Positions 24,038 through 27,706 of a stretch of DNA of 39,148 bases are shown here, piece after piece; within the stretch, counting starts at the first letter, position 1, and the number at the start of each line of letters is the position of its first letter. A model generated the notes under the pieces. That model was given only the letters and a program-made list of their open reading frames with translations, was not told the origin of the DNA and did no database searches. The translations under genes were made by a program, and so were the position numbers. This stretch comes from a virus (taxonomy: Duplodnaviria > Heunggongvirae > Uroviricota > Caudoviricetes): the IMG/VR virus record IMGVR_UViG_2534681836_000019; one strand, written 5' to 3'.

Positions 24038-24250
24038 TCAAAGCGCCACTACATGAACAGCGGCAGGACCTTTAGGTCCGTTCTCAATACCAAATTCAAC
24101 TTCCTGATTCTCAGTTAATGTTTTGAAATCGTTGCTCTGAATTGCTGAGAAATGGACAAACACATCTTTGCTGCCATCTTTCGGCGTGATGAAACCAAAA
24201 CCTTTTTCAGGGTTAAACCATTTCACTAAACCAGTCATTTTGTTAGACAT
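24038..24250 (-). CDS. cspI: Cold shock protein, CspI-like
   Basis: 70-aa [41 protein letters not shown]... with RNP1/RNP2 cold-shock-domain motifs. Confidence 0.9.
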
Positions 24251-24612
24251 AATTATTACCTTTTGAAGAAATTAGCCCTTGGGCAGAATGGTCCGAAAAA
24301 AAATATCAGAGAGAAAAACCAACAAGGAAATCTCAAGAGGTACAAATAATAAAATTATAACAATGACTGCTTCAGATAAATTTGTAACAAACCAGAACAC
24401 CATTAACGCATGATTAACCACCCATAGCAAGGATTACTTTTGTAAAGAAAAACACAGCAATGAAAGAATAGCTTTATTTATTAATAAAACGTGTCATTCT
24501 GATTAAGACCTTTTATCTTACCCTTAAGATTTCAGGAATTTTGGCTCATGGAAGAGTCCTTTTTATTTAAATTTTACATTCCGCGATGTAAATGTTCCGA
24601 TTTAATATTACC

Positions 24613-25110
24613 CTACATTTGATGCTTTTTATCTCTTAAAGATTCATAGATCTGTTGACAAGTCACTCCTGCGATGTAGCGTTCGTCAGCAATTTCAGCA
24701 TAAAGCTGAGCTTCTGCTGCAATATCTCCGAGCATGTTGGTGAGCATTCCTTCGGCGGTTTTGGTTGTTTTGCCTCTGACGGCAGCGGCAAGATCTGCGG
24801 TATGCTTCGCTGCGTCAAGGCGTATGGCATATTTTTTTGCTTCGGCACGCAACTGGTTAACACTATCAGACAGATAAGCAGCCCTGGCAGAAATTTCAGC
24901 AGATTTCTGTTGTGCATCTTTAACAGCCTCATCACGGGCTATAGTTCGCCCCAGTTCAATTATTCGAGCAGCAAATTGAGCATTTACCTCTTGTGATAAT
25001 GCGGCAGCATCACGTTCCGCCCATTTTTTTTGCCATCCTCTGTCGCTCCAGACATTTCCGACGATAAATCCTGACAACACGAGAAAAATCACCATGAATA
25101 TCTGATTCAC
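24613..25110 (-). CDS. Rz: i-spanin Rz
   Basis: 165-aa ORF with N-terminal transmembrane segment and coiled-coil-rich body; start overlaps the endolysin stop (ATGA). Confidence 0.85.
24663..24917 (-). CDS. Rz1: o-spanin Rz1 lipoprotein, fully embedded in Rz in another frame (start may be 24935)
   Basis: Embedded ORF with signal peptide ending in lipobox LTSC, followed by a Pro-rich mature region. Confidence 0.7.
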
Positions 25111-25640
25111 TGTTCTATCCCCCAGCAGGTTAATGCGCTCTCCTGGTCACGACGAATAACCTGACCGTAACAGTTATTTGAACGAATGCGGCAATCGCGT
25201 CCGCCATCCTTAATCCACCAGCGAATCGCTTCGCATGCACCTTTACGATCACCAGCATTCAGCCGCTTATAAAACGTCGACGGGAAACACTTACCGGGGC
25301 CAATGTTATAGGGACAAAATGACGCGATACCCGCTTTTTGTGGTTCGGTCAGTGGTACTTTAATATTGCGCTCCACCCATGCCAGCGCCTTATCACGCTC
25401 AATGGCGTTGACCTGGTCGCATTTTTCCTTCGACAGTTTCATATTGGGAAAAACGGTTTTTCCATCCACCACTGTGGCACCCCGACAGATGGTCCATATG
25501 CCAGAACCATCGCGGTATGCCATTGTGTGGTTACCTTCTTTTTCGTCCAGAAACTGGTCAAGTATCTGAGGAGCAGATGCGCCAGCACCAATCAGCGCCA
25601 GAACGGCAGCCGACAGGCCGTATCTGATTTTTGTGTTCAT
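25107..25640 (-). CDS. R: SAR endolysin (T4-lysozyme-like, GH24)
   Basis: 177-aa ORF; hydrophobic Gly/Ala-rich N-terminus ([18 protein letters not shown]) and E-x8-D-x5-T catalytic spacing ([16 protein letters not shown]). Confidence 0.9.
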
Positions 25641-25948
25641 ATATATTTATGATGAGGACGCTCGTGCTTATTGGCAGGATTTTCAATCTTAAAGGAGTAC
25701 TGATGCTGCAGATAAGACTCAACTTTTTCTGACAATTTTTCTGCTACTTCCAGGAAGACTTGCCGGACGCTCCTTCTGGCTGCTGCCTCATAAAACTCCA
25801 GCGCAGCTCCTTCAACACGGTCCATGGCGACATCCAGGTCAAAAATTTCACCGTCAAAGCGTTCCTTGTCCTGTAAGGCTACAGTTACCGTAACTTTATT
25901 CTCAAAATTACGGACTCCTTTCACAACCAGTTCATAGTCTTGAGTCAT
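25637..25948 (-). CDS. ydfR: YdfR-like protein (103 aa), inserted between holin and endolysin
   Basis: ORF tightly coupled between holin stop and endolysin start; same position and size as ydfR in Qin. Confidence 0.6.
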   Translation of the reverse strand: MTQDYELVVKGVRNFENKVTVTVALQDKERFDGEIFDLDVAMDRVEGAALEFYEAAARRSVRQVFLEVAEKLSEKVESYLQHQYSFKIENPANKHERPHHKYI

Positions 25949-25952
25949 TGGA

Positions 25953-26168
25953 TTACTCTCCTCTCGCAGCCTTACGCCTGTCTTCTTTAATCTTGAAATA
26001 AAGATTTGTCAGATACGTCAGCAGGCCAAAAACCAGGCTACCCAGCACACCGATTGCAGCCCACTGTGACGGAGTTACTTTATCGAGTAACTGTAATGCC
26101 CAGAAACCAGCATTACCCGCCGATGTGCCATAGGCAACACCTGTTGTTAACTTATCCATTGATTTCAT
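25953..26168 (-). CDS. S: Pinholin (phage 21 S-like class II holin) with dual-start motif MKSMDK; longest ORF starts at 26246
   Basis: [71 protein letters not shown]: two transmembrane segments, charged C-terminus, Met1/Met4 dual start. Confidence 0.9.
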
Positions 26169-26387
26169 ATCCTCACCCCGATGTACACGGATGGTGCAAT
26201 ATGTTTGAAAAAGATCGGAGTCTACGGGGTAGTTTTGACAGCACACGTTGTTCTCAACGGCGCTAAAGAAACATACACATTAAAAATGTGAGTAATTATT
26301 TTGAAAGAAAGTCATATATAAAATAATAATACGAGAAATGTTTTCATATTTAGTGTACTGTATACGGCCATTATACAGGAAAAGCCT

Positions 26388-26558
26388 ATGTCAGAACGTA
26401 AAGACTCAAAATCACGCCGTAATTATCTCGTTAAATGTTCCTGCCCAAACTGCACCCAAGAGTCAGAACACAGTTTTTCAAGAGTACAAAAAGGTGCCCT
26501 TTTGATCTGCCCTCATTGCAACAAAGTATTCCAGACAAATCTTAAAGCTGTAGCCTGA
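26388..26558 (+). CDS. Small zinc-ribbon protein (56 aa, CxxC...CxxC), possibly YnfU-like
   Basis: MSERKDSKSRRNYLVKCSCPNCTQESEHSFSRVQKGALLICPHCNKVFQTNLKAVA; below ORF-track cut-off; AT-rich promoter-like region upstream, hairpin downstream. Confidence 0.55.
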   Translation: MSERKDSKSRRNYLVKCSCPNCTQESEHSFSRVQKGALLICPHCNKVFQTNLKAVA

Positions 26559-26620
26559 TTGATTTTATTAGTAACAAGTATTTTTTATATTTTAATAATA
26601 TATTTAAAGCAGATAATAAA

Positions 26621-26640
26621 AAACCCGCCTGAGCGGGTTT
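26621..26640. terminator. Hairpin terminator (possibly bidirectional)
   Basis: aaacccgc-ctga-gcgggttt stem-loop, A/T-rich on both flanks; 62 nt downstream of the zinc-ribbon ORF. Confidence 0.5.
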
Positions 26641-26921
26641 GAGATTGTGGTGCTTTTTGTGGGAGTCATCCACTTACGCACTTTGTTTTGCGATGCCAGC
26701 AGTTAGCTTCTGCTGTGAAACTATTCATGCAGCAAACCTGCACTTCACCACAATGGTTAGCATACTTTTCCTGATTAAGATTTTGCCAAATATGCTAGCC
26801 ATTGTTTCATGTATTGGACCTCCTTACTTTTTATTAAAGAGATCCAATATTCACTACTCTGTCCGTATCTCTACTCAGGCATCAGCCTTCTTCGTTATCG
26901 TATACAGACGAGCGATGAATT

Positions 26922-27137
26922 TTAATCAGTAATGATGACATTTGCTGCTGCAGGACCTTTAGCACCTCTCTCTATAGAGAAGGTAACCTTTTGACCTTCA
27001 AATAAGGTTCGATAATTATCATTCTGAATCGCAGAAAAATGCACAAACACATCTTTACTACCATCAACAGGAGAAATAAAGCCGAAACCTTTATCAGCGT
27101 TAAACCATTTTACTAAACCAGTCATTTTATTTGACAT
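26922..27137 (-). CDS. cspB: Cold shock protein, CspB-like
   Basis: 71-aa [41 protein letters not shown]... with cold-shock-domain motifs. Confidence 0.9.
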
Positions 27138-27435
27138 TCTACATTCCTTAACTTGAGCCTTTCGGCATAAATGGTTTGCATAACAGAAACGACTTCGTAC
27201 TTAATTGGAGAGACTCAAAGAAGGAATAAGTGAATAACACCTGAAATGAGAACTGCTTTAGTAAACTACTTCGTATATCGTCTGTTCTTCAAACCGACGC
27301 AGTCATTAACTCATAGTTGAACATATGAAGCAATGTTTATTTTAGACATCCAGCCACCTTCAATCCTATCAAAAAAGTAGTTTTCTCCAGGAACGTGTGT
27401 ATGGTGCACCAGGTTATCAGTATTAAGGAGTTTTT

Positions 27436-27690
27436 CTGTCCCCTAAAATGACAGGAATTGTCAAAAACTTTGACTACAAAAGCAGCAAAGGTCTTATATT
27501 CCCATCCGATGGCGTATCGATGCCCAGCTTCACGTTTCAGCTCTCAATCTTCGAGATGCAGAAGAAATTACCACAGGATTACGCGTGGAATTTTGCTGGA
27601 TAAATGGTTCGCGTGGACCTTCAACTGCCAATGTTTATCCCGGGATGAGATTCAATATCTCTATTGCCCCATTTAAAGCACAAAAACCCG
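27436..27690 (+). pseudogene. cspF: cspF/cspH-like cold-shock gene, apparently frameshifted and lacking an in-frame stop before the terminator
   Basis: Frame X gives (CTG)[25 protein letters not shown]; the X-1 frame continues [42 protein letters not shown], matching the CspF/CspH family as recalled; junction near 27513. Confidence 0.55.
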
Positions 27691-27706
27691 CTTATAAGCG
27701 GGTTTT
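27683..27706. terminator. Bidirectional rho-independent terminator between cspF-like gene and Q (candidate tR-prime for the late transcript)
   Basis: aaaacccgc-ttat-aagcgggtttt perfect stem-loop with T-run on the plus strand and A/T tract on the other side. Confidence 0.65.

Follow-up and report, generated by a model that had tools for sequence, protein, structure and literature searches.

Downstream of the gene of the antiterminator Q, on both sides of the lysis genes, a tailed-phage record of 39,148 nt (IMGVR_UViG_2534681836_000019; Caudoviricetes; this whole stretch is called the window, and all coordinates refer to it) carries cold-shock genes of the csp type and a small cysteine-rich protein at positions 24038–27706. 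An earlier reading made from the letters alone (the sequence-only reading) had proposed that late transcripts of the phage would have to read through these loci or terminate at them. Which of the two occurs, and whether the csp genes serve the phage or merely travel with it, are the questions that this locus raises. Our results identified it as the part of a Qin/Tritos-type lambdoid prophage of Escherichia coli that holds the late-regulatory and lysis genes, with passenger genes (morons) in two slots, and we put the probability of this reading at roughly 0.88. The arrangement is already known, annotated and partly characterised by experiment; it is ordinary, and nothing in it is new.

A Qin/Tritos-type late region

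The 5.3-kb stretch at 23400–28700 was 99.9% identical over its full length to many E. coli chromosomes, including that of DEC9B, and shared 99.3% identity with Tritos, a plaque-forming phage of E. coli LF82. Among 5426 complete E. coli genomes, 1585 covered at least 80% of this stretch at a single place, and 2155 (~40%) carried parts of the csp/lysis module at an identity of at least 90%. The RefSeq annotation of the region, that of DEC9B, corresponds gene for gene to Qin, a cryptic prophage of E. coli K-12, and the identities between the proteins encoded here and their Qin counterparts ranged from 98 to 100%. The late genes of the window are all on the minus strand. In the order of late transcription, the region comprises Q, the cspF remnant (plus strand), cspB, ynfU (plus strand), the holin gene, ydfR, the lysozyme gene, Rz/Rz1, cspI, ynfQ, ynfR, ynfN and gnsB:

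27813..28565, minus strand: Q, antiterminator of the ydfT/quuQ type (Pfam PF03589, E=3.1e-54; 247 of 250 residues identical to K-12 YdfT)
27436..27637, plus strand: cspF, pseudogene remnant (CTG start, 1-bp deletion, 258-bp deletion; pseudogene in the DEC9B annotation)
26922..27137, minus strand: cspB (cold-shock domain, CSD, E=1.2e-31; 70 of 71 residues identical to K-12 CspB)
26388..26558, plus strand: ynfU, 56 amino acids (aa) with two CPxC zinc knuckles (PF23499, E=2.5e-31; NF038384)
24613..26168, minus strand: lysis cassette (PF04971, PF07041, PF00959, PF10721), made up of the genes on the next lines
25953–26168, minus strand: holin EssQ, P21-type (PF04971; K-12 EssQ)
25637–25948, minus strand: ydfR (DUF1327, PF07041; K-12 YdfR)
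25107–25640, minus strand: lysozyme (PF00959; K-12 RrrQ)
24613–25110, minus strand: Rz (DUF2514, PF10721; K-12 RzpQ)
24663–24917, minus strand: Rz1, embedded in Rz (K-12 RzoQ)
24038..24250, minus strand: cspI (CSD, E=1.6e-31; 70 of 70 residues identical to K-12 CspI)
23839..24027, minus strand: ynfQ, 62 aa, CxxC...CxxC, ATT start (translation; annotations of DEC9B and K-12; 62 of 62 residues identical to K-12 YnfQ)
23771–23836, minus strand: ynfR, 21 codons (terminator hairpin of cspI–ynfQ within codons 3–9)
23538..23693, minus strand: ynfN, 51 aa (51 of 51 residues identical to K-12 YnfN)

The lysis proteins were 98–100% identical to K-12 EssQ, YdfR, RrrQ, RzpQ and RzoQ. These coordinates agree with the sequence-only reading in that Q, the csp genes and the zinc protein are interleaved with the lysis genes. 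The gene identities given in that reading also held; it stated no strands and missed ynfQ, ynfR, ynfN, the terminator of the cspI–ynfQ unit (23811–23831) and the late promoter PR'.

The gene order was fixed. In the IMG/VR database, 80 of 80 kept CspB loci and 80 of 80 kept YnfU loci were consistent where their flanks were covered, and ynfU was always located between the holin gene and cspB. Moreover, IMG/VR scans with CspB and YnfU for broader homologs returned near-identical copies of the same module only. Complete active phages with the module include Tritos (at the identity given above), PhiR42_1, HannyBb and 2H10, and the structural half of the window was 96–97% identical to mEp460, cdtI and Tritos. 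The whole arrangement could be inert, unused debris of a cryptic prophage, the view often taken of K-12 Qin, given that cspF is a pseudogene with three lesions and that K-12 Qin is truncated. However, the prophage of the window retains the full terminase, head and tail module, which K-12 Qin has lost, and near-identical Tritos makes plaques and expresses CspB and CspI (PMC9928086). CspB, CspI, YnfU and all of the lysis proteins are intact and nearly identical to those of K-12, and the module is spread over the 2155 genomes mentioned above. That the region is debris is thus highly improbable.

Predicted late promoter and the hairpin at 27683–27706

Searched against proteins of known structure, Q matched those of the Q protein of lambda (PDB 7UBM, E=6.9e-36; 4MO1, E=1.8e-23), which identifies it as a homolog of Q-lambda. 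It has 250 aa, compared with 207 aa for lambda Q, and possesses an extra DnaJ-type CxxCxGxG zinc-finger segment (PF00684, E=7.9e-9), which is flanked by the portions alignable to lambda Q. The regulatory elements predicted downstream of Q are:

27753..27781, minus strand: predicted late promoter PR', −35 TTGCAT, 17-nt spacer, −10 TAAGAT (collinear with lambda PR' in the alignment)
27738..27746, minus strand: sigma-70-dependent pause element, AACGAT plus GGG, at predicted +1 to +9 (identical to lambda)
27683..27706, both strands: putative bidirectional hairpin, tR'-like for the PR' transcript (minus strand) and terminator of cspF(-ynfS) (plus strand) (fold, tails, conservation)

The −35 (27781–27776) and −10 (27758–27753) elements of PR' were in register with those of lambda. 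In six relatives with the Q module, the −35 element and the spacer were nearly invariant and the −10 element varied (TAAGAT, TAAAAT, TAGGAT). The pause element AACGATGGG (27746–27738) was not only identical to that of lambda but also invariant in the six relatives. The window therefore contains, just downstream of Q, a candidate promoter whose first six transcribed bases (+1 to +6) form the pause element, with GGG after them. At lambda pR', AACGAT (+1 to +6) and GGG form a sigma-70-binding element that causes the +16 pause required for Q loading (PMC4005639). The promoter scan reported 7 sites, compared with 10.9 in shuffled sequences. Because it missed the promoters of cspB and cspI as well as PR', all three were placed by homology.

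The hairpin at 27683–27706 was predicted to fold on both strands, with −20 kcal/mol (z-score −5.2) on the minus strand and −14.5 kcal/mol (z-score −4.4) on the plus strand. Its tail is TTTTTGTG on the minus strand and TTTTCTAC, with TTTTTT thereafter, on the plus strand; of the 8 bases after GCGGG, 6 are T on the minus strand and 5 on the plus strand, as expected for a bidirectional terminator. Because the pause element, aligned with that of lambda, sets +1, the hairpin is placed at ~+41 to +64 of the predicted late transcript and reaches, with its U-tract, to ~+72. On the plus strand it could serve cspF–ynfS only, without any role in the late operon and with the late promoter elsewhere: in K-12 it is found just downstream of cspF/ynfS, and the terminator scan called it on the plus strand only. 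However, the fold on the minus strand is the more stable one and is followed by a T-rich tail. Moreover, the hairpin is inside the block in common with mEp460, whose homology extends from inside Q to 27679, four bases beyond the hairpin, and then ends. Finally, SKA5 and the Salmonella phage 118970_sal3 share the Q block but lack cspF, with a single small open reading frame (ORF) followed by the lysis genes; they nonetheless carry a hairpin of a different stem, CCTCGC-TTCG-GCGGGG, and a T-run at the same distance from the invariant AACGATGGGCTTT. An exclusive role for cspF–ynfS is accordingly unlikely. Based on the end of the mEp460 homology and on the hairpins of the phages without cspF, the hairpin was assigned to the Q module and is best read as primarily tR' of the predicted Q/PR' module. 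Given its U-rich tail on the plus strand, it is also a plausible cspF–ynfS terminator, so that it is credibly bidirectional, and it probably terminates cspF as well.

In the lysogen, PR' transcripts would end ~70 nt downstream, at the hairpin 27706–27683 (tR'). Upon induction, the antiterminator of the Q-lambda family would load at the sigma-70-dependent pause AACGATGGG and render RNA polymerase terminator-resistant. The Q-modified polymerase would then pass three minus-strand intrinsic terminators, which are tR', that of cspB and that of cspI–ynfQ. Late transcription would run antisense to cspF and ynfU on its way to the lysis genes and continue beyond cos to the terminase and the other morphogenesis genes. 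Q-modified polymerase is known to resist terminators (PMC4005639), and the question of reading through or terminating has a textbook answer: without Q the transcripts stop at tR', and with Q the polymerase is terminator-resistant. The csp genes are indeed in the path of late transcription, as had been proposed. For this phage, we infer the start site of PR', the function of tR' and the Q-dependent read-through from homology.

A second, diverged copy (84%) of the 3' end of Q, PR' and tR' was observed in HannyBb at 5503–7290 and also in PhiR63_1. In these phages, 1.55 kb of additional AT-rich cargo (37% guanine plus cytosine, GC) lie between cspF–ynfS and the resident Q, flanked by this copy; one ORF of this cargo encodes 61 aa with a hydrophobic C-terminal tail. 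The tiny annotated ORFs that succeed one another from Q to cspF in HannyBb were considered as a tRNA array, which was rejected, as ARAGORN found no tRNA.

Cold-shock genes as cargo in two slots

The csp genes occupy two slots of low GC content. Slot 1 (26181–27678), between tR' and the holin gene, has 37.7% GC, and slot 2 (~21749–24612), between Rz and the cos end, has 37.0% GC, compared with 45.9% for Q, 46.9% for the lysis genes and 54.7% for the structural genes, a difference in base composition typical of morons. Phage mEp460 shares 27679–28896, from Q through the hairpin, and 25743–26180, with the holin gene; its homology restarts at 26180, 12 bases upstream of the holin start, and its holin, YdfR and lysozyme genes are all shared with the window. 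Between Q and the holin gene of mEp460, a DNA methyltransferase gene and two unknown genes replace cspF, cspB and ynfU, and no cspI follows Rz in mEp460 and like relatives. The same pattern of presence and absence, in which the Q module is shared and the csp genes and ynfU are absent, was found in mEp460, SKA5 and 118970_sal3, which also befits morons. In addition, the two csp units each have a predicted promoter and terminator of their own, as morons do:

27305..27333, minus strand: predicted cspB promoter, TTGCTT-17 nt-TGaGTTAAT (pattern common to cspI and cspG; just upstream of position 1 of the Rfam model)
27138..27298, minus strand: cspB 5' leader, predicted cspA-type RNA thermosensor (Rfam RF01766)
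26641..26921, minus strand: cspB 3' untranslated region, 280 nt (95–99% conserved in five relatives)
26621..26640, minus strand: predicted cspB intrinsic terminator, at best weak for the convergent ynfU (terminator scan, fold, tails)
24402..24430, minus strand: predicted cspI promoter, TTGCTA-17 nt-TGcGTTAAT (pattern common to cspB and cspG)
24251..24396, minus strand: cspI 5' leader, predicted cspA-type thermosensor (Rfam RF01766)
23811..23831, minus strand: predicted intrinsic terminator of the cspI–ynfQ unit, within ynfR (GGCTCCTTCGGGAGC, then TTTTTT)

Expression of these units was measured in the near-identical Tritos prophage. RNA-seq of the LF82 lysogen showed CspI, CspB and YnfN at 93, 59 and 27 times the local prophage background, respectively, and the three were classed as Tritos morons; Tritos formed a plaque on MG1655, from which it was isolated (Misson et al., PMC9928086). 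Given the expression of CspI and CspB in that lysogen, cspB and cspI are self-contained passenger genes that are expressed from a repressed prophage. The top-expressed moron of the Tritos prophage was hokD, at 3792 times the background (PMC9928086). In the window, a match to the Rfam sok antitoxin RNA (133.5 bits) adjoins hokD at 33912–34069 on the minus strand.

CspB and CspI are members of the CspA family, each with a single full-length cold-shock domain (PF00313) that contains RNP1 KGFGFI and RNP2 VFVHF, and their designation as CspB-like (26922–27137) and CspI-like (24038–24250) genes in the sequence-only reading was correct (Pfam CSD at ~1e-31, and the K-12 identities listed above). CspB scored 142 bits with the CspA subfamily model of NCBIfam (cut-off 130). 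The promoter pattern of cspB, cspI and the chromosomal cspG was TTGCTW, a spacer of 17 nt and GTTAAT with TG before it. The matches to the cspA thermoregulator RF01766 spanned 26906–27298 for cspB (161.6 bits) and 24011–24396 for cspI (112.8 bits), both over model positions 1–428, and the gathering score of this model is 78 bits. The upstream boxes of the leaders were GCCGAAAGGC for cspB (27157–27166, minus strand) and GCCCAAGGGC for cspI (24275–24284, minus strand). The GC contents of the leaders were 37% (cspB) and 31% (cspI), compared with 50.6% for the window, and their identity to the K-12 leaders was ~97%. In K-12, the leaders of cspB, cspG and cspI were found by dimethyl sulfate (DMS) probing to be RNA thermometers that act as cold-responsive switches (PMC13271884). 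By analogy, the leaders of cspB and cspI in the window are predicted to be temperature-dependent switches that control translation. A long AT-rich leader, which had been ascribed to every csp gene, is thus present in cspB and cspI and absent from cspF, for which no match to RF01766 was found; the 298-bp spacer between cspB and cspF consists mostly of the leader and promoter of cspB on the opposite strand.

Of the two hairpins that had been proposed to be bidirectional, both are real; their folding z-scores ranged from −4.2 to −5.2, and 0 of 200 shuffled sequences folded as well. Bidirectionality is credible for the one at 27683–27706 but not for the one at 26621–26640. The minus-strand tail of the latter, TTTTTTAT, has 7 T in 8 bases and its plus-strand tail, TTTGAGAT, has 4 in 8, and the terminator scan called it on the minus strand only. 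With a U-rich tail on one strand and a poor one on the other, it is the predicted terminator of cspB and a weak candidate for ynfU. The fold of the cspI–ynfQ terminator had −14.9 kcal/mol (z-score −3.2). The independent promoters and terminators that the sequence-only reading presupposed at the csp loci are thus predicted for cspB and cspI, as cspA-type promoters, thermosensor leaders and terminators of their own. In the lysogen, cspB and cspI–ynfQ would be transcribed from their own sigma-70 promoters, their leaders of ~150–160 nt would act as cold-sensing switches and their own terminators would end the transcripts. A review of Rho lists cspB and cspI among the genes with cold-regulated Rho termination and describes a putative Rho-utilization (Rut) site upstream of the cspI promoter (PMC12360218), which here would fall between Rz and cspI.

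The 3' region of cspB was compared with its relatives, and no surplus of synonymous change was found for the ORFs of either strand. An 11-codon ORF behind a strong AAGGAGG was rejected as a gene, as its 3 changes in the relatives were all non-synonymous. A 97-codon ORF on the plus strand (26639–26932), with 4 synonymous and 10–13 non-synonymous changes, was also rejected.

The csp genes might instead belong to the lytic programme of the phage. Q-dependent read-through from PR' would then account for most of their expression, and Csp would aid late transcription or translation in the cold and serve the phage rather than the host. Both cspB and cspI have the orientation of the late operon, so that each late transcript would include them, plaque-forming phages have kept them, and the NCBIfam models closest to CspB and CspI are those of CspA and CspE, named "RNA chaperone/antiterminator". 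However, the uninduced Tritos prophage expresses them strongly (PMC9928086), both genes have complete host-type cspA promoters and thermosensor leaders, and close relatives have the same Q and lysis genes without csp genes. Furthermore, CSD genes are rare in phages, being present in only 88 of 50,697 deposited phage records. A primarily lytic role is therefore improbable. Lying within the late operon and in the same orientation, the csp units could still do more than convert the host. Because the late transcript would carry the thermosensor leader of cspB upstream of the holin gene, and because CspB and CspI combine RNA-chaperone with antiterminator activity, temperature might come to affect late transcription, the timing of lysis or the yield of virions, a form of phage-encoded thermal tuning, with the shared hairpin at 27683–27706 coupling tR' to the antisense termination of cspF–ynfS. 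We regard this extension as speculative and unlikely to hold.

In favour of morons in the late region of a Qin/Tritos-type prophage, the gene identities, the leaders, the hairpins and the replaceability of the cargo were established here or in the cited papers, as was its autonomous expression, the last in a near-identical prophage. Several points weigh against it. The start sites and transcript ends for this exact sequence are sequence-level predictions. PR' is a weak match to the consensus, with 3–4 of 6 positions in its −35 element, and was left out by the promoter scan. Moreover, one of the cargo genes, cspF, is decaying, so not all of the cargo is under selection.

Compared with K-12, the start codon of cspF is changed from TTG to CTG, 1 bp is lost after 27512, and a deletion of 258 bp at 27637/27638 removes the last three sense codons and the stop codon as well as the whole of ynfS. 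RefSeq flags the same allele in DEC9B as a frameshifted, incomplete pseudogene. No intact ORF of the CspA family was found in this copy, of which only residues 5–27 matched the CspF model of NCBIfam. The identity to K-12 was 89% for cspF and ~97% for its flanks. The decayed allele is common to DEC9B and Tritos, and cspF is intact in K-12, HannyBb and 2H10. At an identity of at least 95%, the decayed allele was found in ~217 complete genomes and the ynfS segment in ~1400. What had been taken for a cspF-like gene at 27436–27690 is thus no gene, having lost its start, its frame, its C-terminus and its stop, and the region contains two functional csp genes and one pseudogene rather than three genes.

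The cargo also includes small proteins. The 56-aa CxxC...CxxC protein noticed earlier at 26388–26558 is YnfU, which scored 107.7 bits with PF23499 (cut-off 27) and 79.8 bits with the NCBIfam model zinc_YnfU_fam, NF038384 (cut-off 36). Its knuckles are CPNC and CPHC, as befits the YnfU family, and 55 of its 56 residues are identical to K-12 YnfU, a detected, comparatively abundant small protein with two CPxC knuckles. The promoter-like site upstream of it (26301–26330, plus strand) was the best promoter match of the region in the promoter scan (10 of 12 positions), and ynfU might be transcribed from this site of its own; ynfU and the dead cspF point opposite to the late genes. Below the threshold, YnfU also matched two other zinc ribbons, that of the ATPase domain of the gpA terminase (PF05876, E=5.9e-4) and that of YjdM/PhnA; both matches probably reflect generic zinc-ribbon similarity. 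YnfQ is the second CxxC...CxxC small protein of the region, and the Shine-Dalgarno sequence of its gene overlaps the stop codon of cspI (TGAGG). A search of the literature on YnfQ/YmcF turned up nothing useful. DEC9B annotates a 76-aa YnfN. In the window, a stop codon interrupts this longer version (23694–23768), apparently owing to a small length difference to DEC9B just upstream, and the 51-aa version of K-12 is intact.

Comparison with known systems

In E. coli K-12, cspB and cspI are textbook examples of cold-shock genes, their status as cargo of the Qin prophage is on record and their moron status has been measured in Tritos, so that the findings matter little beyond correct annotation. 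What is added here is a precise map of the predicted late promoter (PR', pause element and tR') relative to the cargo, together with the findings that cspF is dead in this allele and that only one of the two hairpins is credibly bidirectional. The results are also a reminder of how widespread the module is: at the 90% identity level, ~40% of the complete E. coli genomes contain all or part of it.

The chromosomal locus cspH-cspG-ymcF-ymcE-gnsA of K-12 aligned collinearly, at ~74–76% identity, with two parts of the region: one is cspF and the 5' part of cspB, the other cspI–ynfQ and gnsB. Different from the window, it has neither the lysis cassette nor ynfU between these parts and is outside any recognisable prophage. 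In the comparison of K-12 1050963–1052240 with window 23193–24254 and 27023–27639, which were collinear at ~75% identity, the matched parts were cspF with the promoter, leader and 5' coding end of cspB, and the cspI coding region through ynfQ and gnsB. Upstream of its ATG, cspG was nearer to cspB (identity 0.7–0.85) than to cspI (0.35–0.5); from ~+60 of the coding region onward and downstream, it was nearer to cspI (0.6–0.8) than to cspB (0.3–0.55). The cspG locus thus looks as if it were the product expected from an old crossover between cspB and cspI as direct repeats, which would have deleted ynfU and the lysis cassette. The reverse history, in which an ancestral cassette was duplicated, is an alternative. 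No recent recombinant of cspB and cspI was found with a chimeric probe of cspB leader and ynfQ, of which at least 80% was covered at no place among the 2155 genomes that hold pieces of the module; such deletions therefore do not appear to be ongoing.

K-12 Qin (ynfN-ynfR-ynfQ-cspI-rzpQ/rzoQ-rrrQ-ydfR-essQ-ynfU-cspB-cspF-ynfS-ydfT) agrees with the window in gene content, gene order and strands, with identities of 97–98% for DNA and 98–100% for proteins. Different from Qin, the window has a cspF pseudogene and a deleted ynfS, and keeps the terminase, head and tail module that Qin lost. Tritos (OV696610; relatives 2H10, of the genus Glaedevirus, PhiR42_1 and HannyBb) has the same cspF allele and, at its 99.3% identity over 23400–28700, shows essentially no difference here, whereas cspF of 2H10 and HannyBb is intact. 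Compared with the RF01766 model, for which the leaders and coding starts of cspB and cspI scored well above the gathering threshold, the terminal hairpin was missing in both matches, and the leader of cspI was more diverged than that of cspB.

In phages that encode Shiga toxin (Stx phages), the stx genes are located between Q and S. Similar to the window, the late operons of lambda and Stx phages hold accessory genes in the same two slots, from tR' to S (stx) and from Rz to cos (lambda bor, downstream of Rz), and have in common with it a Q-lambda-type antiterminator, PR' and the AACGAT pause element. Co-transcription of stx with the prophage late genes is described in PMC8065619. Different from lambda and the Stx phages, the window carries cold-shock genes and small zinc proteins as its cargo, and its Q contains the extra DnaJ-type zinc-finger segment. 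Finally, the predicted tR' of the window is ~40–70 nt from the start site, which in the alignment is far closer than the lambda terminator.

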